Positions 19,526 to 61,069 of a DNA stretch of 64,000 nucleotides are shown in pieces. This stretch comes from Candidatus Micrarchaeota archaeon (GTDB lineage: Archaea > Micrarchaeota > Micrarchaeia > Anstonellales > Bilamarchaeaceae), in the NCBI GenBank assembly GCA_040754495.1, contig JBFMCO010000028.1:13878-77877 (forward strand), written 5' to 3'. A program made the position numbers and the translations under genes. The notes under the pieces were generated by a model that saw nothing but the letters and a program-made list of their open reading frames with translations, was not told the origin of the DNA and ran no database searches. Positions within the stretch are counted from its first letter, which is position 1; every line of letters begins with the position of its first letter.

Positions 19526-19743
19526 GCCGCAGTAGCTCAGTGGGAGAGCACACCCGGTTCTTTTAGGCATTGTTCTGCTGAAAGAATCTGTGAAGCTGAA
19601 GACTCTCAGTGAGTCGGAGGCCCTTTTCGGGCTGCCTTATCAAGGCAGAAACGGTGGGGTCGCTTGTTCAATGCGCTTTTTTAGTAAAAAAGCGCCCAAA
19701 AAACGGGCTTGCTAAAACGCGCGGACAAATCAGGCCTGCGGCA
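19526..19743 (+). tRNA. tRNA-Phe(GAA) with three introns: 30/31 (19555..19594), 37/38 (19602..19650), 58/59 (19672..19728)
   Basis: Joining exons 19526-54, 19595-601, 19651-71 and 19729-43 gives a 72-nt cloverleaf (GCCGCAG/CTGCGGC-A; CACCG/CGGTG; loop CTGAAGA; GCTTG/CAGGC). BHB helices: CACA/TGTG, CTG/CAG, GTTC/GGAC. Confidence 0.88.
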
Positions 19744-20023
19744 TTTCCTTCTTTTTCTTCTGAACCTCGATGGCGGGAGCTTCCCGGAGCTTCTTCTGGA
19801 CTTCCTTCATAGGGTAAATCCTGAGGCAAGGCTCGGCGTCATTCCAAATGATTATCACCGGCCCATTCGTCCAGCCGGACGCTTTTAGAGCGGCTCTTAG
19901 TTTCTTTGGAAGGGTTATCTGCCTCGCTCCACCGTCGATAAAAATACTCGCCGTGCTCGCGATTTCTCCACTCTCTCCAAATCCTTTAGGGCCGAAAAAC
20001 CTATCAGTTCCAACCATGCACAT
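19730..20023 (-). CDS. AbrB/SpoVT-like DNA-binding protein, C-terminally truncated by attL
   Basis: TASIFIDGGARQITLPKKLRAAL...VIIIW...LRIYP looped-hinge-helix pattern; the stop falls at the outer edge of the att core. Confidence 0.75.
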   Translation of the reverse strand: MCMVGTDRFFGPKGFGESGEIASTASIFIDGGARQITLPKKLRAALKASGWTNGPVIIIWNDAEPCLRIYPMKEVQKKLREAPAIEVQKKKKEMPQA

Positions 20024-20104
20024 GCACGTTAATGGTTGTTTATTTAAACCTTTTCATCTCGACACATGCAAAGGGTTTTAAATGTTATTAATGTTTGCAA
20101 ATGC

Positions 20105-20266
20105 ATGAAAACGCAAACAAATATCTCAGCTATACGCCTCCATCGCCCGACGGTCGAGCGGCTCCGAAAGTTCAAGCCATACCCTGAAATGAGCGATGAT
20201 AAGCTCCTCAACATTCTCATTGACAAGCTGGAGGCCGCCGAGCCCAAACCGGAGGCATCATCGTGA
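20105..20266 (+). CDS. Ribbon-helix-helix-like small DNA-binding protein
   Basis: SAIRLHRPTVERLRKFKPYPEMSDDKLLNILIDK: beta-strand plus two helices, typical of archaeal MGE regulators; divergent from the AbrB gene across an AT-rich spacer. Confidence 0.7.
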   Translation: MKTQTNISAIRLHRPTVERLRKFKPYPEMSDDKLLNILIDKLEAAEPKPEASS

Positions 20267-20457
20267 AGCACGGAGCTATCCTATGCGCCACAGTGGGCTA
20301 TTTTTCAGACGATATCACGGCAGAATGTTTCAAGCTCATGACCCGCCAGCTCGCAAAAGCAGCGGAGGAAGTCGAGGAGGACGACGCCGCCGAGGATGAG
20401 GACGTTTGCCCGGTCTGCGGCTGCGAGCCCTGCGATTGCGAGGATGAGGATGGATGA
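20263..20457 (+). CDS. Small acidic Cys-rich protein
   Basis: GTGA overlap with the RHH gene; EDVCPVCGCEPCDCEDEDG tail. Confidence 0.65.
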   Translation: MKHGAILCATVGYFSDDITAECFKLMTRQLAKAAEEVEEDDAAEDEDVCPVCGCEPCDCEDEDG

Positions 20458-20663
20458 AACGCGCCCTCCTGCTTCTTGGAATCGCGGCCTTCCTCATAAT
20501 CGCATCGGTAACGGCACGGCGCGAGCCTGAAACCGTCCAGGGCTACCGGACAGAGGAGCATCTCACACGGGCCTATTCCACCATCAACCATACCGGGCCC
20601 AACCGGACGGCCCGATGCCGCCTCTTCATAGACGGCTCGATGAGCTGTGGGGCGAGGCCTTGA
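20454..20663 (+). CDS. Small protein with N-terminal TM/signal helix
   Basis: ATGA overlap; MKRALLLLGIAAFLIIASVTA. Confidence 0.6.
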   Translation: MKRALLLLGIAAFLIIASVTARREPETVQGYRTEEHLTRAYSTINHTGPNRTARCRLFIDGSMSCGARP

Positions 20664-20814
20664 ACGCGCATGGGAGGCCGAAAGGCCGGGGGGCTGGCGG
20701 CGCACTGGTCGCCATAATCGCCTCTGCCAGCCCCTTTCCCGGTCCTCAAGCAGGACATAGTGGAGATGGGGCGGCGGACCTTCGGGCAACCGCTGCCCTT
20801 CTCTTTCTGACGTG

Positions 20815-20985
20815 ATGCTGATGCCGCCCGCCCGTTCCTATCCTCTCCGCCGCTGCCTTCGATGCTACCACGAAACCCGCGAGGAGGACGACCACTGCCG
20901 CCGCTGCGGCGGCCGGATGCAGTTTCTCTTTCAAGACCGCTTATCAGGAGGTCCTACCCATGTCCCCGCCCCAAAATTCCAATAA
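20815..20985 (+). CDS. 56-aa zinc-ribbon microprotein (not in ORF track)
   Basis: Hand translation MLMPPARSYPLRRCLRCYHETREEDDHCRRCGGRMQFLFQD...*; CxxC-x10-CxxC. Confidence 0.65.
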   Translation: MLMPPARSYPLRRCLRCYHETREEDDHCRRCGGRMQFLFQDRLSGGPTHVPAPKFQ

Positions 20986-21799
20986 GAATAAAGCCTCAAA
21001 AAAAGAGGAGTTTCTCGCTGGTAGCGAGCCGACCAGCGAGCCGCACGTCGAAAAACCAGCGAGCGCCCAAAAATCGCCCTCCGACGATGATTCCAAAAGG
21101 AATCTCGCTGGTTTCTCGCTACCCAGCGAGCCCAACGTCGGAGAATCAATACCAGTGTCCGCACACCGGTTGCAGTGGAAATTCTCGCTCCGTTCACACC
21201 GCCCGCAGCGCCCGCCTTTCCGCACCGTGAAGATGCGGAACTGGGAGCAGCGCATATGGACGCATGAGGGCGCGACCTTCGTAAGCGGTCCGAATACGCT
21301 CCAACTCTTCCTGGAGCTCGGAAAGCGCCGCTCGACCGCCTCGACCTTGCATGCGGGCGAGCTCGGAAACCGCGCCTGGGACACGGACCGGAGCATTTTC
21401 GACAGCTTCTTAAGCTGCCAGTGGGGGGCCCGCTCAATTCGAGCGCCGAAATCCCCCAGGAACGCCGAAAATTCATGGTCCGTCATCTGCCCACCCGTCC
21501 TTATACTGGTGGGCTATGGCGTTATGAAATGTATTATTTTGCCGGGCCCTCACCCTTCGGCTCGAAGTCCCCGCAGCGGCAGAGCGAACAGCTCCCCCCG
21601 GCGTCGTGGTCTCGCATCTCGTGGCCGCACGTGCATGTCATGCCAGGACCTCCAGCTCCTCCGGCTCGTCGTACAGGGGCCGGATGACGAGCTCCGGTTC
21701 ATTACAGGCCTGCGGCAATTTTTTCCTACTGATTTCCGCTCCGGAATTGCGTTCCTCTGTGAAAAAAGTTACACTAATAAAGGCATACCCACAAAATGA
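20960..21799 (+). CDS. Largest ORF of the element, function unknown (possible replication-initiator remnant); real coding part probably ends near 21530
   Basis: AGGAGGT SD 7 nt before the ATG, high GC3, co-oriented with the upstream operon; the 3' part is antisense to more plausible minus-strand genes. Confidence 0.5.
   Translation: MSPPQNSNKNKASKKEEFLAGSEPTSEPHVEKPASAQKSPSDDDSKRNLAGFSLPSEPNVGESIPVSAHRLQWKFSLRSHRPQRPPFRTVKMRNWEQRIWTHEGATFVSGPNTLQLFLELGKRRSTASTLHAGELGNRAWDTDRSIFDSFLSCQWGARSIRAPKSPRNAENSWSVICPPVLILVGYGVMKCIILPGPHPSARSPRSGRANSSPRRRGLASRGRTCMSCQDLQLLRLVVQGPDDELRFITGLRQFFPTDFRSGIAFLCEKSYTNKGIPTK
21534..21641 (-). CDS. 35-aa Cys/His zinc-binding microprotein (not in ORF track)
   Basis: MTCTCGHEMRDHDAGGSCSLCRCGDFEPKGEGPAK*; ATGA overlap with the orphan C-terminal fragment ending at 21638. 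Confidence 0.65.
   Translation of the reverse strand: MTCTCGHEMRDHDAGGSCSLCRCGDFEPKGEGPAK
21638..21717 (-). other. Start-less C-terminal fragment of the AbrB-like gene (PQACNEPELVIRPLYDEPEELEVLA*), separated by integration
   Basis: Same reading frame across the att core as the 19730..20023 ORF (CCG CAG GCC TG). Confidence 0.7.
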
Positions 21800-21805
21800 T
21801 GCCTT

Positions 21806-22807
21806 ATGAAACTAGTTATACCAAAGGGCTACACGCCCGCTCTGGACGTGAGGAGAACCGAGGAGGCGATTCCGAGGATAAAATCCTTCTTCGAGAGGAG
21901 CCTTGCGGAGAACCTCAGGCTCGAGAGGGCCTCGGCGCCCCTGTTTGTCAGGAGAGGGACGGGCATAAACGACGACCTGAACGGCGTTGAGAGGAAGGTT
22001 TCGTTCGACATCATGGACGGCGCCATCGATGTCGAGGTGGTGAACTCGCTCGCGAAATGGAAGCGGATGGCTCTCGCCCGCTACGGCTATGGCCAAGGCG
22101 AGGGCATCTGGACCGACATGAACGCCATCCGCCGCGACGAGGAGCTGGACAACCTCCACTCGGTGTACGTGGACCAGTGGGACTGGGAGAGGGTCATAAG
22201 CAGGGCGGAGAGGACGGTGGAGTTCCTCATGGCCGTGGTGGACCGCATCTACGATGCCATGAAGAGGACGGAAATGATGATATTCGACAGGTACGGCGTC
22301 GAGCCGGCATTGCCGGAACGCATGGAATACGTCACAACGCACCAGCTCGAGGAGGCGCATCCGAACCTGTCAAGGAAGGAGAGGGAGGTCGTCGCGGCGA
22401 GGGGGGCCGGGGCCCTGTTCCTCATGAAGATAGGGGGCAGGCTCAAAGACGGCAAGCCGCACGACGGCCGCGCCCCGGATTACGACGACTGGGAGCTGAA
22501 CGGGGACATAATAGTCTGGAATCCAGTGCTCCAGTCCGCCTTCGAGCTCTCCTCCATGGGGATACGCGTGGACAAGGACGCGCTCCTGCGCCAGCTCCGC
22601 GAGGCCAACGCAATGGACCGCCTCGGACTGGAGTTCCACAGGATGCTCATGGATGGCGAGCTTCCGCTTTCGGTCGGCGGCGGGATAGGGCAGTCGAGGA
22701 TGTGCATGTTCCTGCTCAGGAAGGCCCATATAGGCGAGGTGCAGGCCAGCGTCTGGCCCCCGGACATGATTTCCGAGCTGGAACGGCACGGCGTCAGGCT
22801 GCTCTAG
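21806..22807 (+). CDS. asnA: Aspartate-ammonia ligase (asparagine synthetase A)
   Basis: GINDDLNGVER, VVNSLAKWKR, HSVYVDQWDWE, HDGRAPDYDDW, GGGIGQSR. Confidence 0.95.
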   Translation: MKLVIPKGYTPALDVRRTEEAIPRIKSFFERSLAENLRLERASAPLFVRRGTGINDDLNGVERKVSFDIMDGAIDVEVVNSLAKWKRMALARYGYGQGEGIWTDMNAIRRDEELDNLHSVYVDQWDWERVISRAERTVEFLMAVVDRIYDAMKRTEMMIFDRYGVEPALPERMEYVTTHQLEEAHPNLSRKEREVVAARGAGALFLMKIGGRLKDGKPHDGRAPDYDDWELNGDIIVWNPVLQSAFELSSMGIRVDKDALLRQLREANAMDRLGLEFHRMLMDGELPLSVGGGIGQSRMCMFLLRKAHIGEVQASVWPPDMISELERHGVRLL

Positions 22808-50376: not shown

Positions 50377-51275
50377 CAGCCGAGGCAGCCGGACAGCGCG
50401 TCCGCCATCTCTTCCGCGTCATGGAACCTTCTCATCGGGTCCTTCTCCAATGCGCGGGCGGCAACGAATGAGAGCCGCGGCGGTATCCACGGCGAGCGCT
50501 CGTGCATCATGGGCGCGTGCGCGCTCCGGTGAAGCGCCATCATCCCCTCTGCGCTGTCATCGGATATCAGGTAGGGGTAGTGGCCGCTCGCGAAAGAATA
50601 GAGCATTACGCCCACAGAGTATATGTCAGCCTTCCTGCCCAGTCTCGCGCTGCGGTAGGTCTGCTCCGGGGCCATGTACATGGGAGTGCCGACCGGGATA
50701 TCAGTGCCCTGGGCCATATCCGGCATGCCCGGGACGAGTGCGAGGCCGAAATCCAGTATCGAAACGGCATTCTGGTTCTCCCGGAGGACGAGGTTCGAGG
50801 GCTTCATGTCCCTGTGCACGATGCCAGCCTTATGCATGGCGGAAAGGGAATCGCACACGCTGATGAAAGACTCGATTAATGCCCTTTTCGGCCTTGCAAT
50901 GAAGCCGTTCAGGCTGAATGGGAGTCCTGCCGCGTATTCCTCGGCAAGATACGGCTCCGGACCTTCCAGCGATGCGGCAATCAGGGCAGGGATGCCCGGG
51001 TGGCTGATGTGCGCGAGGGCCGCCGCCTCGTTCGCGAGCGCGGCCAGAGGCCTCTCCCGCCCGAGCATTTCGTCTTTGAGCCTCTTGAGCGCGACATGGT
51101 TGCCTGTCTTCAGGTCGGATGCCAGCTGGACGTAGCAGACCGCCCCCTGGCCGATTTCGCATTCGGGCTTGAAGCGGCTGGCCACGACGGCGAACATGCG
51201 CCTGTCCGAGAGCGTTGCCCGGCTGGCGCTGGATTTGTGCATGCTTATATTGGGCTGCGTAGGCTTTAAATACAT
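50373..51275 (-). CDS. Hanks-type Ser/Thr protein kinase (PknB-like catalytic domain)
   Basis: IGQG, VALK, HRDMKPSN, DFG, GTPMYMAPEQ, ADIYSVG. Confidence 0.92.
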   Translation of the reverse strand: MYLKPTQPNISMHKSSASRATLSDRRMFAVVASRFKPECEIGQGAVCYVQLASDLKTGNHVALKRLKDEMLGRERPLAALANEAAALAHISHPGIPALIAASLEGPEPYLAEEYAAGLPFSLNGFIARPKRALIESFISVCDSLSAMHKAGIVHRDMKPSNLVLRENQNAVSILDFGLALVPGMPDMAQGTDIPVGTPMYMAPEQTYRSARLGRKADIYSVGVMLYSFASGHYPYLISDDSAEGMMALHRSAHAPMMHERSPWIPPRLSFVAARALEKDPMRRFHDAEEMADALSGCLGC

Positions 51276-51305
51276 ATATTACCACGAAAGACGACCGAAA
51301 TCCTA

Positions 51306-51326
51306 GACCGGAAACTGGAAACTCAA
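51306..51326. repeat. Short heptamer repeat copy just 3' of tRNA-Val
   Basis: gacc ggaaact ggaaact. Confidence 0.45.
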
Positions 51327-51334
51327 AAGGATAC

Positions 51335-51439
51335 TGGGCCCACCCAGGATCGAACTGGGGATCTTCGCTGTTTGCTCTCTGCATGCCATGATGTCATGCA
51401 AACGTAAGAGCGACGTCTTCACCACTCGACTATGGGCCC
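51335..51439 (-). tRNA. tRNA-Val(TAC) with 32-nt intron, best placed at 36/37 (51372..51403)
   Basis: GGGCCCA/TGGGCCC-A, TCGCT/AGCGA, CCCAG-TTCGATC-CTGGG; an 8-bp intron helix supports a cut after C36, giving loop CTTACAC. Confidence 0.85.
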
Positions 51440-51469
51440 TGCGTAGAAATGGCTCAGGACTCTTTAAAA

Positions 51470-51994
51470 TCACTCCAGGTACATCGCCTTTTTGCACTTT
51501 GCGCAAAAATCCGCCCCCTTGTAATCCACCCCGGCTATCGAATCCGAGAACACCATCACGCATTTTTTGTCGTCGCAGTGCGGCAGGCCGAGGGTATGCC
51601 CCAGCTCGTGCATGATTTCCTTGAGGATGCGGTCCTTGAACAGGGCGTTCGCCAACGCATTGTCCTCGACCGGCCCGTAGAACCTCGGGTCCAGCCTCGC
51701 GGTCGAGACTATGGCCGCATCGCCCCTGGCAAGGCCGAAGACGAAGTTGAGGGGCGCGGAGAATATGTCCTCCCGCACCACGAAAATGGTCTTCTCGCCC
51801 GGGGAGAAGAACCGGCCTATTTCATCGAGGAGAACGTCAGCGTCGTACTGCTGGCGGCCGCTCCGGAACGAGCGCGTCATCGGGAAGTCCATGAACTCCA
51901 GGTCCGCCTCGGCCCTGAACTCCTTGCGTATGGCCTCCACTATCCTGGTGAATGCTGGAATCGTGCGCCCTACAAGGACAAGCGAGACGCGCAT
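51470..51994 (-). CDS. amzA: Archaemetzincin (Zn-dependent protease)
   Basis: R.QYDAD, NFVFGLA, HELGHTLGLPHC...CVM.FS...C..C. Confidence 0.92.
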   Translation of the reverse strand: MRVSLVLVGRTIPAFTRIVEAIRKEFRAEADLEFMDFPMTRSFRSGRQQYDADVLLDEIGRFFSPGEKTIFVVREDIFSAPLNFVFGLARGDAAIVSTARLDPRFYGPVEDNALANALFKDRILKEIMHELGHTLGLPHCDDKKCVMVFSDSIAGVDYKGADFCAKCKKAMYLE

Positions 51995-52034
51995 GGAATG
52001 ATAAGAAAGGGAGGGAAATAAAAAAGAAAGTTTC

Positions 52035-53405
52035 TCAGACGTTGAAGTACTTCTGGAGCTCGTAGCCGGAAACGCCCTTCATGGACTCCTTGTGCTGCCT
52101 GAGCTTGACCTCCAGGTAGTCTCCGAGGAGCTCGGTGGGCACGACCCCTTTCAGGAACGCGGTGTCGCTCTGCAGCGCCGACGCGGCCTCGAACAGGCTG
52201 TCCGGCAGCTCCTTCTCCACGCGCTTCTTTCCTCCTTCCTCCTCGAGCGGGTCTCCCGGGTCGGTCTTCTTCTTTATGCCGTCGAGGCCTGCCGCTGCCA
52301 CGAGGGCCTGCGCGAGATACGGGTTCGCTGCCGGGTCCGCGCCGAAGTAGGCGATTCTCTTGGTCTCCTTGATGTTCTTCTTGTAGCTCGGCACGCGGAC
52401 TAGCGCGTCCTTGTGCGACACGCTATAGCCCACCCTGAAGCCCTCCGCAGCCAGCCTCCTGTAGGAGTTTGGCGTGGGCGCGGTGAAGAGCGAGAGCGCG
52501 GCCGAGTGCTCGAGGAGGCCGCCGATGAAGTACAGGCCGCTCTGGCTGAGCTGGCCGTAATCCTCCTTGCCGTCGTAGAAGATGTTCTGCTCGCTCGTCT
52601 TCCACAGGCTGATGGCTATGTTGAACGAGTTGCCCTTCTCGCCCTCGACTGGGTACGGCATGAACGTCGCGGACGCGTTGACCGCGGTCGCGAGGTTCTT
52701 TGTTATGAACTTCAGCGTGTTCACGGCATCGCCGGCCGACTTGAGGCCGCGCGGGGAGAGCTCGAAGCTCTGCTGGGCCGTCGGAGCGCGGCCGTGCCTG
52801 TGCGAATCGACGAGCACGCCGAAGCTGTCCTCCAGCGTCTCGGATATCTGCGTCCTCGCGGAGTACATGGAGTCGCGCGGGGTGGCCGCGTATGCTCCCG
52901 TGTCTTCGTTGGAGAGGACGGACGGCCCCCACTTCGCCTCGCGGGAGTCCATTATCAGGCCGGTTCCCCTGCCGCGCGTTGTCTTGTCCGCGGTGGCGGT
53001 GTCGAAGATGTAGCAGTCCATCTCGCTGCCGACAAGCGCGCTCTTCACGCCTGCCGCGCCGAGGTTCGTCTCCATCCTGTCTGCCACGTAGCGCGGGTCC
53101 TTGAGGAACCTCTCCTTCCTGACCGCGACATAGACGTCGCAAATCAGCCTGACCGTCGCCGGCTCCCAGGGAAGCCTGGCAAGGGTGTCCGGGTCCGGGA
53201 GCAGGACGAGGTCGCCCTGCTCGGATGCACCGAATACCTCGGAAAGGTCCGCCGCGTGGAGGCCGTTCCCGAAGGACGCCTCCTCCAGCTTCCGGGTCGA
53301 CACGCTCACGCGGTGCATCTGCCCCTTTATGTCGAAAAACTGGAGGTCGACCCAGCGTATCTCGTTAGTAGCGATATATTTCATCACGTCATCTATAGCC
53401 GACAA
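52035..53405 (-). CDS. glnA: Glutamine synthetase type I family protein with degenerate catalytic residues
   Basis: RWVDLQFFDIKG, LLPDPDT, TFMPYP, NSYRRL, DPAANPYLA, LPDSL.EA; catalytic Glu/His/Arg largely replaced. Confidence 0.85.
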   Translation of the reverse strand: MSAIDDVMKYIATNEIRWVDLQFFDIKGQMHRVSVSTRKLEEASFGNGLHAADLSEVFGASEQGDLVLLPDPDTLARLPWEPATVRLICDVYVAVRKERFLKDPRYVADRMETNLGAAGVKSALVGSEMDCYIFDTATADKTTRGRGTGLIMDSREAKWGPSVLSNEDTGAYAATPRDSMYSARTQISETLEDSFGVLVDSHRHGRAPTAQQSFELSPRGLKSAGDAVNTLKFITKNLATAVNASATFMPYPVEGEKGNSFNIAISLWKTSEQNIFYDGKEDYGQLSQSGLYFIGGLLEHSAALSLFTAPTPNSYRRLAAEGFRVGYSVSHKDALVRVPSYKKNIKETKRIAYFGADPAANPYLAQALVAAAGLDGIKKKTDPGDPLEEEGGKKRVEKELPDSLFEAASALQSDTAFLKGVVPTELLGDYLEVKLRQHKESMKGVSGYELQKYFNV

Positions 53406-53471
53406 AATACCACCTCGGGATGACTATCTTAGCCATAAATACTAATAAATAGGTTTCGAACAATTCCGGCG

Positions 53472-55034
53472 TCAGCATGCGCTTTTGCGCTCAGCCGCGA
53501 GGCGCCTCGCCACAGGCGTCACGTAGTCCCCGTTCAGGCATCCGGTGCATATGGGCTGGCCTATCGCCTCCCGGAGCCCGGCAAGGGAGAGGTAGCCGAG
53601 GCTGTCGACTCCAAGGAAACGGGCGACCTCGTCCTCCTGCTTGTCGCTCGCGACGAGCTCCCTGTAGGATTTCATGTCCACCCCGTAGAAGCATGGGGCC
53701 CGAATCGGCGGGCAGGTTATGCGGACATGGACCTCACTTGCGCCGGCGCCGCGGACCAGAGAGATTATCTCCTTCAGGGTGGTCCCCCGGACGATGCTGT
53801 CGTCTATGAGGACCACGCGCTTGCCGGCTACGAGCGAGCGGACCGGGTTGAGTTTCAGGCGCACGTTGCCGCTGCGCTCCTCCTGCCTGGGCATTATGAA
53901 CGTCCTGCCGATGTAGCGGTTCTTTATCAGGCCCTCTTCGAGCGGGATGGACTGCGCCCTGGCGTAGGCCTCGGCGGCAGTGCGGGAGGTGTCGGGGACC
54001 GGGACCACCACGTCGGCATCGGCCGGATGCTCCCGGGCGAGCAGCGTCCCGAGGCGCTTGCGCACCTCCAGTACCTCCTTCCCGTTTATGACCGAGTCCG
54101 GGCGGGAGAAATACACGTATTCGAACATGCAGTGGCGAGGCTCCTTCTTCATCAGCGATTTCCGCTCCATGGGGCTTGCGAGGATGACGAGCTCGCCGCC
54201 ATCGACCGAGCCTTTGAACGGTATGCCGTTCACGTCGAGGGCGCAGCTTTCGCTGGCGAACGAGACGAAGCGGTCGTTCTCCCCCCATACGAGGGGCCTG
54301 ATTGCATGCGGGTCGCGGAAAACGGCCAGCCTGCCGTTGATTATGGCGGCATCGGAGTACGCCCCGTCCAGCGTGCCCATGACGTGCCTGACTGCGTCCT
54401 CTACGCTCCTGCCCTGCTTCAGCTGGGAGTGGAGGAGGTAGGCGATAGGCTCGGAATCCACGGTGCCGGTGAATGCGTAGCCCTCTGACTCGAGCGATGA
54501 GCGCACCGCGTCATAATTGGCGATGTGGCCGTTGTGCGTCACCGATATCCCGTCTATCACGGAAGGCTGGATGTCCTCCATCAGGCAGCGGCCCGTGGTC
54601 GGGTAGCGGGTATGGCCTATGCCAAGCCTCCCTTTGAGCAACATGTCCTCCTTGGTGAAAATGTCGCTGACAAGCCCGAGGCCCCGGCGGGCAACCAGTT
54701 TCCCGCCACCAGCCTCCAGTCCGGGGTTTGGGGTTTCCTGTTCAGGGTTCTGGACCCTGCCCTCCGTTCCGCCAAAACCCAAAACGCCGGACCCGGAACC
54801 CGAAACCGCCTGCCATGGGGCTGAAGCCCCAAGCCCTCCAGCGCTTCGCGCTGAAGGCCGGCTGCCCGATGCCGGCTGCTGGGGGCCGAGCACCACCATG
54901 CCGGCCGCATCCTGGCCCCTGTGCTGGAGCGCAACGAGCGCGCGGTAGATATAGGGGGCGACGTCCTCGCCGTTTTTCGAGTAGATTGCGATTATTCCGC
55001 ACTCTTCTTTTTTCTCTGAGGAGAAGGATACCAT
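53472..55034 (-). CDS. purF: Amidophosphoribosyltransferase with a 59-aa insertion
   Basis: EE|CGI, LQHRGQD, GHTRYPT, HNG, C.FEYVYFSRPDS, NRYIGRTFI, VLIDDSIVRGTT. Confidence 0.95.
   Translation of the reverse strand: MVSFSSEKKEECGIIAIYSKNGEDVAPYIYRALVALQHRGQDAAGMVVLGPQQPASGSRPSARSAGGLGASAPWQAVSGSGSGVLGFGGTEGRVQNPEQETPNPGLEAGGGKLVARRGLGLVSDIFTKEDMLLKGRLGIGHTRYPTTGRCLMEDIQPSVIDGISVTHNGHIANYDAVRSSLESEGYAFTGTVDSEPIAYLLHSQLKQGRSVEDAVRHVMGTLDGAYSDAAIINGRLAVFRDPHAIRPLVWGENDRFVSFASESCALDVNGIPFKGSVDGGELVILASPMERKSLMKKEPRHCMFEYVYFSRPDSVINGKEVLEVRKRLGTLLAREHPADADVVVPVPDTSRTAAEAYARAQSIPLEEGLIKNRYIGRTFIMPRQEERSGNVRLKLNPVRSLVAGKRVVLIDDSIVRGTTLKEIISLVRGAGASEVHVRITCPPIRAPCFYGVDMKSYRELVASDKQEDEVARFLGVDSLGYLSLAGLREAIGQPICTGCLNGDYVTPVARRLAAERKSAC
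54708..54884. repeat. Heptamer palindromic element inserted in frame in purF (177 nt)
   Basis: 21-nt identity (GTTTTGGGTTTTGGCGGAACG) with intergenic copy 45351-45371; 7-mer periodicity on both arms. Confidence 0.8.
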
Positions 55035-55083
55035 AAGCTATAGTGGGGAAGCGGATTTAAATCAGTTTGGGCAAAACGGATTC

Positions 55084-56403
55084 ATGTTCGGCACCTCCGG
55101 CATCAGAGGCATCTATGGACACGACATCACCATAGGCCTCGCCTCGAAGGTAGCGTCCATTTTCGCATCGGGCCGGCTGGTTGCCGGAAGGGATATCCGG
55201 GAGAGCGGCCCGGCGCTGTTCGGGGCAGTCTGCCGTGGAGCCCATTCGGCCGGCGCAGATGTCGTGGACCTCGGCATCGTCCCCACGCCCACTGCCGCCC
55301 TGGCAACGAAAAAGCACTCCTGCAGGGGCATCATGATAACCGCATCGCACAATCCGCCGGAATACAACGGCCTCAAGCTCATCGAGGGCGGCAAGGAAAT
55401 CGGCAAGCCCCTTGAGAGGGAGGTCACTGCAAGATACGGGAAGGCGGCGGACGTGAAGGGCGGCGTGCACGGGAGGACCATACGCGACGCGGCCATCATA
55501 GAAGACCACAAGGGACTGGTGGCCGGGGTGGTCGATTGCAAGGCGATAGCCGCCAGGAAGCCGAAGGTGGTCGTGGACTGCAACGGCGCCGCATGCGCGA
55601 TAACCCCCCAGCTCCTGACCGACCTCGGCTGCAGGGTGGTCAGCGTGAACGCATCCGAATCGTGCTTCAACAGGCCGTCCGAGCCTAGCGCGGGGAATCT
55701 CGCCTACCTCTCCTCTTTCGTCCGGGAAATCGGGGCGGATTTCGCACTCGCACACGACGGCGACGGGGACCGATGCATGGTGCTGGACGAGTTGGGGGAG
55801 GCATTGGCCCTCGATACCCAGCTCGCCATCATGATAGAGCATGAGCTTGGCCGGAAATCGCGCGGCGGGGCCAAGGTCGTTTCCACGGTGGAGGCATCGC
55901 TCACCATACGGGATGTCGTGGAAAAAAGCGGCGGGGAGATCCTCATCACGCCGGTCGGCAGCACCTACGTCGGCGACGCGCTGGAGGAGAGCGGGGCGCT
56001 TTTCGGGGGCGAGCCGTGCGGCGAATACATCTACAAGGCCGGCGTCCACGTGCCGGATGCGGTCATGGCAGCGGCCATGTTCGCCGAAATCTTCTGCGCG
56101 GGGGGGCCTTTCTCGAAACTCAAAACCCGATACCCGCAACATTTCATGGCAAGGGAGAAGTTCCGGGCCGGCGACAAGCATGCCGCGATGCGGAAGGTCA
56201 TTGATGCCGTTTCCGCGCTCGGGATAGCCGGGAAGACAAGGACTGACGACGGGATACGCGTAGATGAGGAGGATGGATGGTTCCTGATCCGTGCCTCCGG
56301 GACCGAGCCGGTCGTACGGCTTACTATGGAATACAAGGCCAGGGCGAGGCGTGATGAGAGGCATGCCGCGCTGAAGCGCATCATCTCCCTTGCCCTTGCC
56401 TAG
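55084..56403 (+). CDS. glmM: Phosphoglucosamine mutase / phosphohexomutase
   Basis: FGTSGIRG, ITASHNP, DGDGDR, GGEPCG, IRASGTEP. Confidence 0.88.
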   Translation: MFGTSGIRGIYGHDITIGLASKVASIFASGRLVAGRDIRESGPALFGAVCRGAHSAGADVVDLGIVPTPTAALATKKHSCRGIMITASHNPPEYNGLKLIEGGKEIGKPLEREVTARYGKAADVKGGVHGRTIRDAAIIEDHKGLVAGVVDCKAIAARKPKVVVDCNGAACAITPQLLTDLGCRVVSVNASESCFNRPSEPSAGNLAYLSSFVREIGADFALAHDGDGDRCMVLDELGEALALDTQLAIMIEHELGRKSRGGAKVVSTVEASLTIRDVVEKSGGEILITPVGSTYVGDALEESGALFGGEPCGEYIYKAGVHVPDAVMAAAMFAEIFCAGGPFSKLKTRYPQHFMAREKFRAGDKHAAMRKVIDAVSALGIAGKTRTDDGIRVDEEDGWFLIRASGTEPVVRLTMEYKARARRDERHAALKRIISLALA

Positions 56404-56404
56404 C

Positions 56405-56937
56405 TCATTTTACCGGGATGTAGTAAAGCGGCACGAAGACGGTTGGCATGGGGGGCGGGAAGGGGCCCTCATAGGCGCATCCATAGGGCGAGGAGTCCAG
56501 CGCCTCCCAGAGCTCCCTTTGCGCAATCTCCATCCCCGAGGAGCTGAGATAGAATATGGCCAGGTTCCGCTGCCTTCCGGGCGGGGAGAATGCCACGACA
56601 TCGCCGAGAGTCTCTACGCTCACAAGCACGTCTACTGGCCGGCTGCTCAGGAGAAGCCCGGAAAGGCGCCCCATGCACTGCTCCTTCCCGGAGAAGGCCA
56701 GAAGCGAGGCGGCCGGGAGCGCCTCGTCGTAGTATAGCGCCTCCCGAATCTCCCTGATGAGGAACGGGGCATACCATTCCGTGACCATGTCCGCGATGCG
56801 GCGCAAAAACCCGGGCGCGGATGCGCAGTCCTCGGCAAGCGGCTCCTTCAGCGGCCCGAGGGCTGCCCTCAGCCTCCCCCATGCCTCGCGCTGCCGCTCG
56901 TGCGTGACGGCGCGGTCCCTGTACGGTCCGTTCATAT
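56405..56937 (-). CDS. Hypothetical protein
   Basis: ORF; start uncertain; no motif recognised. Confidence 0.55.
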
Positions 56938-56970
56938 GTTGCAGTATTAGTAACAAAATGCTTATATTTG

Positions 56971-57399
56971 CTAACGGGCGCCTGCCGATAGCCTTGCGAG
57001 GCACGCCATTGCGTCCTTTCCCCGCCCGGACGGGACGAGCAGGTGGTCGTGGTGGTATGCAGAGAACGCGTTCACGCTGATTTTTTCCCCGGCAAGGGCC
57101 GCAGTTATCCTTGCAAGGAAGCCGACCGCCATCAGGTCTGACTGGACCGACAGCGTTATCAGGGCGAATGGCCCCTGGACGCTTTCCCCGCTGAGAGGGG
57201 AGATGTCCTCCAGCGCATCCTCGGAAAACACGACCGTCAGGCCTTCCTCCTCCCGGAAGATGGCAAGAATGGAATCCAGATGGTTGGCAAGGACCATGAG
57301 CTGGCCTTCCTCAACGGACGCGAAATAGTATTTCGTTTCCGAAAGGGCCGGGCTCATGGAGCGCAGGAGAGTACCGAGGTCAGATATCGCCATAGCCAT
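56971..57399 (-). CDS. ACT domain-containing protein (ACT_3/ACT_7)
   Basis: DLGTLLRSMSP, FREEEGLTVV, ALITLSVQSDLMAVG, HHDHLLVP. Confidence 0.88.
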   Translation of the reverse strand: MAMAISDLGTLLRSMSPALSETKYYFASVEEGQLMVLANHLDSILAIFREEEGLTVVFSEDALEDISPLSGESVQGPFALITLSVQSDLMAVGFLARITAALAGEKISVNAFSAYHHDHLLVPSGRGKDAMACLARLSAGAR

Positions 57400-57421
57400 C
57401 CCCTCAAAACGCTGGACGCAG

Positions 57422-57460
57422 AACGCACAACCCGAAACCTGGAGCCGGCTGCCGGATGCT
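57422..57460. repeat. Heptamer repeat copy between translin and ACT genes
   Basis: cacaacc cgaaacc tggagcc ggctgcc ggatgct; reverse-complement-like to 45315-45348. Confidence 0.65.
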
Positions 57461-58011
57461 CATAACAGCTCCCCCCGTGCCTGCTCTATCTGGTGGCGGG
57501 CCGAATCCTGCTTCTTGCGGAACTCCGGGAGGACCGAATTCGAGAAGCGGAGCGGGAGCAGCTCGTCGTATATCTCCTCCATCATCCTGAAATAGAAGCC
57601 GGCCTCGTGCTTGTTGCCCCTGCGGAGGGACTCGTACATCTCCCTCTTGAGCTCGCCTATCGCATCAAGGAGGCCAAGGAGGTAAGGTATCTCCGGGACC
57701 TTCAGCTGGGCGTAGCCCGGGATTTTCTTCTGCTCGATGGCTGAGAGGACGATGCGCGCCTCGGCGTATTCCTGGTAGATGTGGCCAAGCTGGGACGGGA
57801 ACCCGTCCGAATACGGCGAGAGGGCCTTGAGGGCTTTTTCCGCCTCGTCAAGGTGCGCCTTCGCGTTTTTGAGCTCGTAGGCGTGCATGCATTTTATTGC
57901 GTTAGAGCAGGAGCGCACGACCTTCCGCTGCTCGGCGAGCACGAAATCCAGGCTCTTCTCCTTCTCGGAGAGCTTTTTCATGATTTTCTCGACGCCTATG
58001 TGGAGTGACAT
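57460..58011 (-). CDS. Translin family protein
   Basis: YQEYAEA, YLLGLLDAIGELKR, RKKQD. Confidence 0.85.
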   Translation of the reverse strand: MSLHIGVEKIMKKLSEKEKSLDFVLAEQRKVVRSCSNAIKCMHAYELKNAKAHLDEAEKALKALSPYSDGFPSQLGHIYQEYAEARIVLSAIEQKKIPGYAQLKVPEIPYLLGLLDAIGELKREMYESLRRGNKHEAGFYFRMMEEIYDELLPLRFSNSVLPEFRKKQDSARHQIEQARGELL

Positions 58012-58061
58012 GAAGGGATAGGCCCAGCGAAGCTTAAAAAGATGGGCGCGGAGAGCCATGC

Positions 58062-58838
58062 ATGGCACTCGAAATTCTCGCGGTCTGCGCAGTCCCGGTC
58101 GGGCTAATCCTGCTTTTCATGCTGATTGGCTCGATAAGGGTCCTCTACCAGTACCAGAAGGGCATACTCTTCCAGCTCGGCAAATACCAGAAGACGATGG
58201 AGCCCGGGGTGACGGTGGTGCTGCCCATGCTGCAGGAGCTGCGCGTCGTTGACATGAGGATAACCACGGCCGACATCCCCAAGCAGGAGGTCATCACCAA
58301 GGACAACATCCCGGTCCTCGTGAACACGGTCGTGTATTACAAGGTCGAGAAGCCCGAGGCCGCGGTCCTCAAGATACAGAACTTCGATTTCGCGGTGAGG
58401 CAGTACACGCAGGCCGCGCTGAGGGATGTGGTCGGCAACAATGAGCTGGATTTCGTGCTCACCGAAAGGGAGAAAGTCGCGGAGTCCATAAAGAAGATTG
58501 TCGATACTGAGACCTCGGACTGGGGCGTGGACATCTCCGCCATCAAGATACAGGAAATCGAGCTGCCTGCAGAGATGAAAAGGGCCATGGCCAAGCAGGC
58601 GGAGGCGGAGAGGGAGCGCAGGGCCGCGATCATCGTTTCCGAAGGCGAGATGCAGGCTTCGGAGAACCTCAGGAAGGCAGCGGAAACCCTCGCCCGCTCG
58701 CCGGCCGCCCTGCAGCTGCGGACGCTGCAGACGATACGGGACATTGCGGCCGACCCGTCCGAGAAAATCGTGCTCTTCATCCCGAGCGACTATCATAAGC
58801 TTGCAAGCAGCCTGCTTGGCAAGAAGAAGGAGGAGTGA
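58062..58838 (+). CDS. SPFH/stomatin family protein
   Basis: VDMR..T.DIPKQEVITKDN, QAALRDVVG, MAKQAEAERERRA, LQLRTLQT. Confidence 0.92.
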   Translation: MALEILAVCAVPVGLILLFMLIGSIRVLYQYQKGILFQLGKYQKTMEPGVTVVLPMLQELRVVDMRITTADIPKQEVITKDNIPVLVNTVVYYKVEKPEAAVLKIQNFDFAVRQYTQAALRDVVGNNELDFVLTEREKVAESIKKIVDTETSDWGVDISAIKIQEIELPAEMKRAMAKQAEAERERRAAIIVSEGEMQASENLRKAAETLARSPAALQLRTLQTIRDIAADPSEKIVLFIPSDYHKLASSLLGKKKEE

Positions 58839-59504
58839 ATGCTCGAGCGCAAGAAGAGGTATCTCCAGCTGGCATTCAACCAGGACTCCTCAACTGTCGC
58901 GAGGCTGCTCCCGCGCATCCCCCGCGACGAGAGGATAATCATAGAGGCCGGGACGCCATATATAAAAAGGGAGGGCGAGCGCGCCATCCGGTTCATAAGG
59001 GGCATGTGGGGGGGATACGTGGTCGCAGACATCAAGACCATGGACGGGGCCGCGGAAGAGGCAGCCGAGGCTGCTGAGGCAGGGGCTAATGGCGCGACAG
59101 TCCTCGGAGCCGCGCCGAAAGAGACGCTTGACGTGTTCATCGAGAGCTGCGCCGAGGCCGGGATAGACTCCTTCGTGGACATGATTGGCGTGGAGGACCC
59201 CCTCCGGGTCCTCATGAAGCTGAAGAAGCCGCCCCACGTCGTCGTCCTGCACAAGGGAAGGGACGAGGAGAGCACCCGCTCCAAGTTCATCAAATACGTC
59301 CATATCAAGCGCGTCCGGAGCAAATTCGACGTGCTCATTTCGGCCGCAGGCGGCATAGACCTCAAGGCGGCGCAGAGCGCATCCTTCAACGGCGCTGACA
59401 TAGTGGCCGTCAATATCGTGACGCCTGACGACCCCTTCGAGGGCATAGCGACCGACGAGGCCATCGAAACGCTCGCGGTCGAGTTCCTGCGGGGCATAGA
59501 CTGA
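58839..59504 (+). CDS. 3-hexulose-6-phosphate synthase-like (OMPDC/HUMPS family) protein
   Basis: LQLAF, IEAGTPYIKREG, ADIKTMD, AGGI. Confidence 0.8.
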   Translation: MLERKKRYLQLAFNQDSSTVARLLPRIPRDERIIIEAGTPYIKREGERAIRFIRGMWGGYVVADIKTMDGAAEEAAEAAEAGANGATVLGAAPKETLDVFIESCAEAGIDSFVDMIGVEDPLRVLMKLKKPPHVVVLHKGRDEESTRSKFIKYVHIKRVRSKFDVLISAAGGIDLKAAQSASFNGADIVAVNIVTPDDPFEGIATDEAIETLAVEFLRGID

Positions 59505-59512
59505 GGTGCTCT

Positions 59513-60262
59513 ATGGACGCAGCAATCTTCGCCCTGGGAGCGGCAGTCTCTGTTTCCGTCATACTTGCTTATATCGCCATGGCAATAGGCGGCGCAATCA
59601 TCCGGCCGCGGATAAAGGACGCGAAGGCGCTGGAAAAGGCGGTGAAGGCGCTCGCGCTCGCCCTTTTCGTTGTGCTGGGTTTTTCCATAGTGCCGGTCAT
59701 GGTCGGGGTTTTCGTATTCATGCTCGATGAGGCAGGCATCACCGGCTTCCCCGCTGATGCCTTCATCGAGAACGACATGCTGCTCGTGTATCTGTTCTGG
59801 GCTGTTTATGCAATCGGGATGGTTATCGCCTTCCCTGCCATGAAAAAAGACTTTTTCGGGCCAGATGGGGGCGGCGAGGCCAAACCGCACGGGCCCACAT
59901 GGCCGCCGCTGGATTACCAGATAAAGACGGCAGGAGCCATTTTCCTTGCCAGGACAATCGGGGATGAACCCTCGGCCGCTTACGAGGTGCTCGAGATATG
60001 GAAGAAACCGGAGGGGTTCATGTTCAAAAAAGGCGATGCCGCCGCAATAGACACGAAGTTTTTCCAGCTCCTCGGATACAGGCCCGAAGACGGACAGCTC
60101 GTCGTTTTTTTCATCATGGACAAGCCCCCCTACGACAGTCCGGTCGAGCTGCTCCCTGCCGCGGACGGCAGGGTTGTTTTCGCCCCGGGGGACCCCACCG
60201 TGCGCGAGGAGCTTTCGATAAGCGGGCTGAAGGAGCGGGTCCTCCGGGCAGTCAGGAGATAG
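59513..60262 (+). CDS. Hypothetical membrane protein (three TM helices plus soluble C-domain)
   Basis: ORF; hydrophobic N-half. Confidence 0.6.
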   Translation: MDAAIFALGAAVSVSVILAYIAMAIGGAIIRPRIKDAKALEKAVKALALALFVVLGFSIVPVMVGVFVFMLDEAGITGFPADAFIENDMLLVYLFWAVYAIGMVIAFPAMKKDFFGPDGGGEAKPHGPTWPPLDYQIKTAGAIFLARTIGDEPSAAYEVLEIWKKPEGFMFKKGDAAAIDTKFFQLLGYRPEDGQLVVFFIMDKPPYDSPVELLPAADGRVVFAPGDPTVREELSISGLKERVLRAVRR

Positions 60263-60268
60263 GCACCG

Positions 60269-61069
60269 CTAACTGGTGTCAATGATGCGTGTTTTCTCAT
60301 CGATGTCCTCTATGACCACATTTTCCATGCGCTTTGCGAAATCGAGCAGTTTTTTGAGCTGGTCTTCCCGCATCAGGACACGTTCCTTCCCAGGTAGCGG
60401 GCCTTTTCCGCGGATTGGGTAAAATCCGAAGCTCACTATAGAGTAATCCCTGAATCTCCTTATCAGTAGAAAAATGCCGTTTTTCCCGCAGATTTCCAGC
60501 GAGTCGAGGTTTTTGCCGGCATATCTCGCAGTTATTCCGTCCCCGATTTTGGTGAAAAGGAACGGATTGGCTTGTTTTGCGGCCATCACGGGGATGCCGA
60601 GAATGAAGAAAAGGAAGCCGATAAAGAAGCCCATGGATGGATTGACGGGATTTGGCAGCTGGAATTCCTTCCTCGCTTCTGCAACCAGCAGGCTCATGTA
60701 CTCCACATAATCCTCTCGGCTCGAAACTGTCCCGTTGCACTCCAGCTCATAGACCGCACTGCAGTAGCGTTCCATTTCATTCGGCGTCAGTTCCTGCTCG
60801 AACGCCGGGATGCTGAGGTTATGGCACCGGTCGTACTGTTCGATGAGTTTGGATTTGACGAATGTGTCGTCAGAGAAAGGGAGGGGCCCGGACAGCGAAG
60901 GGCCCATGAAAGCGAAGAGGAGCGAGATGCCGGCAAGTGCGCACAAAATAGCGAGGAAGTATTTTGCCAGCTCTTTGGCGTCCGGCGCAAATATGCAGGA
61001 ACGGATGTCATCGTCAGTGATTGACAGGATTTCATCGCGGTCCAGGGCCTCGAAAGCGGCTTTGGCCAT
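60269..61069 (-). CDS. Hypothetical two-TM membrane protein
   Basis: ORF; two TM helices flanking a Cys-containing loop; somewhat AT-richer. Confidence 0.6.
   Translation of the reverse strand: MAKAAFEALDRDEILSITDDDIRSCIFAPDAKELAKYFLAILCALAGISLLFAFMGPSLSGPLPFSDDTFVKSKLIEQYDRCHNLSIPAFEQELTPNEMERYCSAVYELECNGTVSSREDYVEYMSLLVAEARKEFQLPNPVNPSMGFFIGFLFFILGIPVMAAKQANPFLFTKIGDGITARYAGKNLDSLEICGKNGIFLLIRRFRDYSIVSFGFYPIRGKGPLPGKERVLMREDQLKKLLDFAKRMENVVIEDIDEKTRIIDTS

Follow-up and report, generated by a model that had tools for sequence, protein, structure and literature searches.

A probable deletion remnant of a tyrosine-integrase element in an archaeal tRNA-Phe gene, with an attachment site that splits an AbrB-like regulator gene

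We analyzed a stretch of 64,000 nucleotides from Candidatus Micrarchaeota archaeon (contig JBFMCO010000028.1, positions 13,878 to 77,877; referred to as the window), in which a 2-kb insert occupies the 3′ end of the tRNA-Phe gene. The insert lies between two copies of a 13-nt repeat, splits an AbrB-like regulator gene at its attachment (att) site, and contains the stub of a tyrosine integrase gene that ends at a deletion junction. Very probably, it is the remnant of a virus-like element of ~10 kb that used a tyrosine integrase to enter tRNA-Phe and later underwent an internal deletion. The initial annotation of this DNA, made from the sequence alone, had instead preferred an integrase-less satellite or minimal element and had kept a deletion derivative of a larger provirus as its fallback.

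An integrated element at the 3′ end of tRNA-Phe

The tRNA-Phe(GAA) gene (19526-19743, plus strand) was recovered by splicing in silico. Its exons (19526-19554, 19595-19601, 19651-19671, and 19729-19743) are separated by three introns of 40, 49, and 57 nt, and removal of the introns leaves a canonical cloverleaf of 72 nt that ARAGORN folds as tRNA-Phe(GAA). Because of these introns, neither ARAGORN nor Rfam reports a tRNA at the unspliced locus. No other tRNA-Phe gene was found in the assembly, a metagenome-assembled genome (MAG) of 72 contigs and 1.63 Mb that is 80% complete.

As had been noted initially, the 13-mer CAGGCCTGCGGCA is repeated exactly on the plus strand, at 19731-19743 (attL core), where it covers tRNA positions 61-73, and at 21705-21717 (attR core). 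In the tRNA, it corresponds to the 3′ strand of the T-stem, the 3′ strand of the acceptor stem, and the discriminator base. No further copy with up to one mismatch is present in the window, and no further exact copy in the whole assembly. The insert between the two repeats measures 1,974 bp. Directly 3′ of attR stands the T6 run that had been described as following it. This run opens a region (21718-21805, plus strand) that we interpret as the original host sequence 3′ of tRNA-Phe, consisting of the T-run and a spacer and followed by asnA at 21806-22807.

This interpretation is based on two relatives lacking the element, both of which agree with the expectation that tRNA-Phe would there be joined to the sequence now found after attR. 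In the congener G017, tRNA-Phe has a single intron and an uninterrupted T-arm, and an asnA homologue (68% protein identity) lies ~190 nt downstream with nothing element-like in between. In G006, the bases directly 3′ of tRNA-Phe (TTTTTTGTTAACTGATTTTCCCTGCGG) are ~70% identical to 21718-21744 of the window (ATTTTTTCCTACTGATTTCCGCTCCGG), and the likeness of this flank can be followed over 21718-21750. On the other side of tRNA-Phe, the upstream membrane-protein gene is syntenic in five relatives. The genes of the insert also differ from their surroundings in composition: the score per codon is 0.05-0.2 for element genes versus ~0.4 for the flanking host genes, and the GC content at third codon positions (GC3) is 0.58-0.72 versus 0.80-0.85. 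Paralogues of the element genes were not found in their own genome.

A length of 13 nt is short for an att site, and one might ask if the repeat is coincidental and the region ordinary host DNA. The chance of this is practically negligible: the 13-mer occurs at these two places alone in 1.63 Mb, a relative shows the empty site, the codon usage is foreign, and homologous elements carry the same tRNA-Phe sequence within the same gene (see below). The 2-kb insert is a real integrated element at tRNA-Phe. Its predicted attP junction reads ...GGTTCATTACAGGCCTGCGGCATTTCCTTC..., and the predicted empty attB reads ...GGACAAATCAGGCCTGCGGCAATTTTTTCC....

Two further observations concern the tRNA-Phe gene and its 3′ flank. 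The 57-nt T-loop intron (19672-19728) belongs to a family of ~55-nt sequences made up of the hairpin GCGCTTTTTTAGTAAAAAAGCGC followed by CCAAAAAACGGGC..., with further members in L034-L043. In this genus, they are found as introns of many different tRNAs, in the anticodon loop as well as the T-loop; one copy in the same genome (on contig C22) lies directly 3′ of a tRNA end. We had considered the T-loop insertion as the scar of an earlier integration and rejected this idea in view of its membership in a family of introns found in many tRNAs. In G011 (L012, ~1596-1625) and G017 (L003, minus strand, ~2674-2622), stretches of 20 and 44 nt directly after tRNA-Phe close with another, incomplete copy of the tRNA end (CCTGCGGCA and CCGCGGCA, respectively), followed by a conserved downstream hairpin. 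These partial copies may be scars of older, almost wholly decayed integrations at the same site.

The att site lies within an AbrB-like regulator gene

On the minus strand, the integrated copy of the AbrB/MazE-like regulator gene is an open reading frame (ORF) of 97 aa (19730-20023) that ends with ...EMPQA* at attL. Its TGA stop codon spans the edge of attL: in minus-strand reading, the repeat ends with TG, and the adjacent base of the tRNA T-loop supplies the A. At attR, the same frame reads ...PQACNEPELVIRPLYDEPEELEVLA* and is joined to the regulator gene only in the excised form. This detached 3′ end (21638-21704, minus strand) encodes ...CNEPELVIRPLYDEPEELEVLA*, with a GC3 of 0.85 and a positive codon score, and its stop overlaps (ATGA) the start of a 35-aa Cys/His ORF, a putative zinc (Zn) microprotein gene (21534-21641, minus strand). 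Joined across one copy of the repeat, the two parts of the regulator gene encode 119 aa. The ORF ending at attL, the tail frame at attR, the ATGA overlap, and the length of the joined protein are all as the initial annotation had given them.

Word-based homologue searches with the AbrB-like protein returned only the protein itself, and searches with the locus in viral and genome collections returned nothing. Only an exhaustive HMMER search with the 97-aa protein identified two short relatives, P0004 and P0005. P0004 (108 aa, 45% identity) ends with ...EKNAAGLICTDEVIRPLHDDEAAVLEVSA and therefore carries the very tail that the window has stranded at attR (VIRPLYDEPEELEVLA); its last residues, ...ICTDEVIRPLHDDEAAVLEVSA, can be aligned with the detached 3′ end, and the pattern VIRPL.D....LEV.A is conserved between the two elements. 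The expectation that homologues would possess the tail is thereby borne out. P0005 (104 aa) contains AATGCCGCAGGCCTGAT and was read as DNA in three contigs (L031-L033); it is also encoded on two more contigs. When 176 genomes of the order were compared with a profile of the regulator, matches came only from G000, from G005, and from one gene of G014, which stands alone and is uninformative.

The gene for P0004 is unbroken and located on a metagenomic contig (L030, from run SRR32844785). Inside this AbrB-like ORF, L030 reads ...AAAAATGCCGCAGGCCTGATTTGCACG..., a match, in reverse complement, to 18 nt from the 3′ end of tRNA-Phe. The gene ends with ...VIRPLHDDEAAVLEVSA, and its stop overlaps (GTGA) the gene for a 38-aa homologue of the Zn microprotein (45% identity). 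A tyrosine integrase gene follows on the same strand, giving the order AbrB-like gene, Zn microprotein gene, integrase gene; the integrase begins with MTDFDFLDFLGHFRARIERAPHWQLKRLSK... and runs into a PF00589 match. The divergent strand carries a homologue of a Cys-rich ORF of the insert and a reading frame in the position of its RHH-like gene. The latter frame was assigned by reading the sequence, and BLAST gave no match between it and the RHH-like protein of the window. L030 thus shows the unintegrated arrangement that the initial annotation had predicted. The idea that the att site splits the regulator gene and that the free form heads an operon and has an additional tail can thus be seen directly in L030 and P0004 and, at the level of sequence comparison, is confirmed.

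Integration shortens the regulator by 22 residues in the window (119 to 97 aa) and, by reading of the sequences, by 13 and 27 residues in two relatives. Upstream of the AbrB-like gene, an intergenic region (20024-20104) separates it from a divergent, RHH-led operon; from the gene layout, we presume that it contains the promoters and functions as the switch region. The same divergent layout was seen in L030 and in the provirus of G005 described below.

Assignment of the regulator to the AbrB/MazE fold is less firm. Pfam gave MraZ (E 0.0097) and, for P0004, MazE_antitoxin (E 4e-4), both below the curated cut-offs, and a profile search of the PDB gave only VapB (E 0.39). The AlphaFold model is of low confidence (pLDDT 45), with a strand-helix-strand-strand order that fits this fold.

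An integrase stub and a convergent gene end at one junction

According to the initial annotation, no integrase is present in the insert. This has to be corrected: the minus strand from 21486 begins with MTDHEFSAFLGDFGARIERAPHWQLKKLSK... and encodes the first 55 codons of a tyrosine integrase (21322-21486). The stub is 71% identical to the N-terminus of the L030 integrase over exactly 55 residues, 49% identical to P0008 (a 242-aa PF00589 integrase), 47% to the integrase of G005, and 37% to that of L031. All four alignments stop at 21322, the point at which the catalytic domain starts in those integrases. This PF00589 domain is present in the relatives L031, L032, G005, and P0008; a catalytic domain of tyrosine recombinases was not detectable anywhere in the window.

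From the other side, a plus-strand ORF starting at 20960 approaches the stub. Its homologues are P0002 on L028 and a 361-aa ORF on L029. The conserved core of this gene in the window (21149-21313, HRLxW...PQR..FxxVKMRNWExRIW) is truncated: homology ends at 21313, and the relatives run 150-220 aa further, with a mutually conserved C-terminal half that is absent from the window. Gene 20960-21313 has no match in Pfam, among PDB sequences, or in the ESM Atlas; its AlphaFold model is poor (pLDDT 49), and the only Foldseek matches are weak and TBP-like (E ~0.07) and were not trusted. We also examined the two long ORFs that span this region as whole genes and rejected both. In the minus-strand ORF of 180 aa, homologues were found only for residues 1-55, and what follows runs antisense to the plus-strand gene. 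In the plus-strand ORF of 279 aa, homology ends at about residue 118; the remainder has low GC3 and is antisense to the integrase stub, the Zn microprotein gene, and the tail.

Plus-strand homology thus ends at 21313 and minus-strand integrase homology at 21322, which places a deletion junction at 21314-21321. Since two convergent genes lose their 3′ parts at this one point, a single internal deletion accounts for both.

These findings bear directly on the satellite reading, in which the element never needed an integrase of its own, a helper integrase would act in trans, and the att site within the regulator gene would serve as a switch. Both att cores are intact and identical, the regulatory genes and candidate cis-acting repeats are intact as well, and the genome contains six other tyrosine recombinase genes (PF00589; contigs C58, C60, C44, C13, C14, and C46, L014-L019), all of which speaks in its favor. 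However, the element carries an integrase gene and a convergent gene that are both cut short at a single point, a sign of decay rather than design. A second copy or a relative with the same reduced 2-kb layout was found neither in the same genome, nor in the 176 genomes of the order, nor in viral and metagenome collections. Furthermore, the nearest integrases encoded in the same genome are only 33-35% identical to that of the element and belong to a longer type (347-372 aa). We therefore regard the satellite reading, although it was the one first preferred, as improbable. The fallback, a deletion derivative of a larger provirus, is favored by the stub, the junction, and an intact relative of 9,980 bp in G005. 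Independently of this question, the six recombinase genes suggest that several other integrated elements are present in the genome.

Intact relatives share the position of the att site

The congener G005 contains a 9,980-bp insert (L054, 9898-19899; G005:C6, ~50897-60898) flanked by a 22-nt repeat (AAAACGCCGAGGGCAGGATTTG) that corresponds to the 3′ end of tRNA-Ser(TGA). At one end, an AbrB-like gene reads into the tRNA gene and stops at a TGA in the T-loop. Divergent from it, an RHH-like gene is followed by a long operon that includes a gene resembling terminase large subunits (phrog_2666, E 2e-14), while the other genes are ORFans. A complete integrase gene (266 aa) is located at the far end, next to the second repeat. 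This insert is an intact provirus, a very small virus-like element of this archaeal genus. Contig L031 (9.2 kb, 41% GC) shares several genes with it in the same order; here, the integrase gene comes straight after the AbrB-like gene, which is the circularly permuted, unintegrated order.

Together with the remnant in the window, L030, the L031-L033 contigs, and the G005 provirus make four related elements with an att site in the 3′ end of the regulator gene. Across this family and its two tRNA targets (Phe and Ser), attP falls within the final codons of the regulator gene, shortly upstream of the integrase gene. A Zn microprotein gene between the regulator and integrase genes is a feature of the sub-lineage that includes the remnant and L030.

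A model for integration and decay

Based on these comparisons, we propose the following course of events. An intact ancestor would have carried attP in the last codons of its AbrB/MazE-like regulator gene, divergent from an RHH-led operon and with the integrase gene downstream on the same strand, and would have recombined with the 3′ end of the host tRNA-Phe gene. Integration shortens the regulator from 119 to 97 aa, with a stop formed across the edge of attL. It also leaves the regulator promoter at one end of the provirus and carries the tail to the other, along with the genes for the Zn microprotein and the integrase. After integration, a single deletion would have fused integrase codon 55 to about codon 118 of the convergent gene and, by comparison with the relatives, removed the catalytic domain of the integrase along with some 8 kb of cargo.

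In terms of function, the regulator could be a repressor with two differently behaving forms. The AbrB-like and RHH-like proteins would then constitute a lysogeny-type switch, with the short, integrated form serving as the maintenance form. Expression of the integrase gene would be expected to fall after integration through loss of both its promoter and its translational coupling. The remnant itself most likely cannot move, since it has no recombinase of its own and the nearest integrases in the genome are of a different, longer type; only superinfection of the cell by a close relative could mobilise it. The remnant may nevertheless go on supplying the short regulator and may still confer immunity.

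Several points weigh against this reconstruction. The size of the ancestor was deduced from relatives that do not have the gene at 21149-21313, and the AbrB fold of the regulator is assigned from sub-threshold Pfam matches and a low-confidence model. The remaining small ORFs are intact and the repeats identical, which would also fit a recent element mobilisable in trans. Finally, the provirus might be full length in the cells and the 2-kb form a product of assembly collapse, or a deletion variant present in only part of the population that entered the MAG consensus. The incomplete and fragmented state of the MAG would allow for this, as would a short repeat (AGCTCGGAAA) at 21315 and 21360, near the junction. 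On the other hand, the junction lies inside a 78-kb contig, no other contig of the assembly contains the missing half of the integrase gene or other element genes, and a repeat of ~10 nt is too short to mislead an assembler. An origin of the deletion in assembly or in a minority variant is, in our view, very improbable. Understood as a deletion remnant, the locus itself is an ordinary decayed provirus.

Comparison with known integration systems

The element is a defective member of the tRNA-targeting tyrosine-integrase elements: flanking repeats and an empty site were found, the catalytic domain of the integrase was not. It shares with defective (grounded) prophages and remnants at tRNA genes two att repeats, an internal deletion that took the recombinase catalytic domain and cargo, and the retention of regulatory genes. 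We see no difference of substance; the locus is one of these.

In archaeal integrative elements of the pNOB8 type, the integrase gene stays intact on integration. The present family resembles them in the use of a tRNA 3′ end as attB, in the flanking direct repeats, and in an attP outside of the integrase gene, and the intact G005 relative likewise keeps its whole 266-aa integrase gene. It differs from them in that its integrases are short (233-266 aa) and attP lies inside the ORF of the upstream regulator; in the window copy, moreover, the integrase gene is truncated. The initial annotation had drawn a comparison to SSV1-type elements. This holds insofar as an element gene is broken on integration, at an att site derived from a tRNA. 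The split gene, however, is the regulator gene and not the integrase gene, whose ATG is 219 nt away from the att core and which is left uninterrupted by integration, so that the immunity system of mycobacteriophage BPs is the closer parallel.

Indeed, integration-dependent immunity of BPs appears to be the closest described mechanism. In BPs, as in the present family, the integrase gene adjoins that of the regulator, and a small regulator gene runs in the divergent direction. The attP of this phage lies inside gene 33, which codes for the repressor; gp33-103, made by the prophage, is stable and active, whereas gp33-136, the form made by the virus, has a C-terminal tag through which it is degraded (PMC4557955; Villanueva, Oldfield and Hatfull 2015). 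The elements described here are alike in having attP within a regulator gene and a C-terminally shorter product in the integrated state (97 versus 119 aa), and both systems use a tyrosine integrase and target a tRNA 3′ end. They differ in several respects. The host is an archaeon. The Pfam matches of the regulator are to the AbrB/MazE clan, and no similarity to gp33 was detected, a negative that involved no direct comparison of the two proteins. Translation of an additional gene, for the Zn microprotein, is coupled to that of the tail. The window copy is defective, and a degradation tag and repression, documented for BPs, would here be conjecture.

A limited literature search yielded no description of such wiring, with att in the regulator gene, for archaeal elements. 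The useful result therefore lies at the level of the family, in which the att site is placed in the 3′ end of the regulator gene, upstream of the integrase gene, as in the integration-dependent immunity of actinobacteriophages. An archaeal version based on an AbrB-type protein would be new, with its function so far a prediction. We tentatively put forward, as a possibility that we ourselves regard as doubtful, that DNA elements of ~10 kb in DPANN-type archaea use integration-dependent immunity: integration would replace a long repressor with a conserved acidic tail by a short and stable one and would uncouple the genes for the Zn microprotein and the integrase from their promoter; the remnant in the window would survive as a domesticated immunity module. 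The wiring of the family yields a concrete model, open to testing, of how archaeal viruses or plasmids of very small size could register whether they are integrated. The locus is also a record of mobile elements, and of how they decay, in an archaeal lineage about which little is known.

Other genes and repeats of the locus

The plus strand of the insert carries a series of small ORFs, for which searches against PHROGs and Pfam gave nothing reliable. The operon divergent from the regulator gene starts with a small RHH-like gene (20066-20266, likely start ATG at 20105) that has only a weak Pfam match and is 43% identical to the gene in the corresponding position of G005. It is followed by a 64-aa acidic, Cys-rich ORF (20263-20457), which shares ...AAEDEDVCPVC with the gene in the same position of L030, and by a 69-aa ORF with an N-terminal hydrophobic segment (20454-20663), for which no homologues were found. 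Further downstream, a 57-aa zinc-ribbon-like ORF (20812-20985) shows weak matches to the Pfam family DZR. On the minus strand, the Zn microprotein gene next to the tail is 45% identical to its counterpart in L030.

Between the zinc-ribbon-like ORF and the conserved core of the truncated gene, the plus strand contains two copies of a hairpin followed by the motif GCC(G/C)(C/A)ACGTCG (21013-21148), and the paired motif is also present upstream of the homologous gene in L028 and L029. Paired hairpins together with GCCGCACGTC(G/A)GAGA precede the conserved protein core in three unrelated contigs (the window; L028, ~955-1075; L029, ~265-385). The stems of the hairpins vary in a compensatory manner (CTCGCT/AGCGAG, CTCAC/GTGAG, and CTCAT/ATGAG), and the reading frames differ. 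Both features speak against coding sequence and for a candidate element that acts in cis as DNA or RNA, for instance an origin or operator.

Downstream of the insert, the best matches of asnA (21806-22807), encoding an aspartate-ammonia ligase, are found in genomes of Clostridia and Bacteroidota (54-60% identity). A search of genome contigs with asnA returned bacterial relatives only and no further tRNA-Phe-asnA context. Within the genus, matches at the DNA level occur only in G017 and G020. This distribution is consistent with acquisition of asnA from bacteria.

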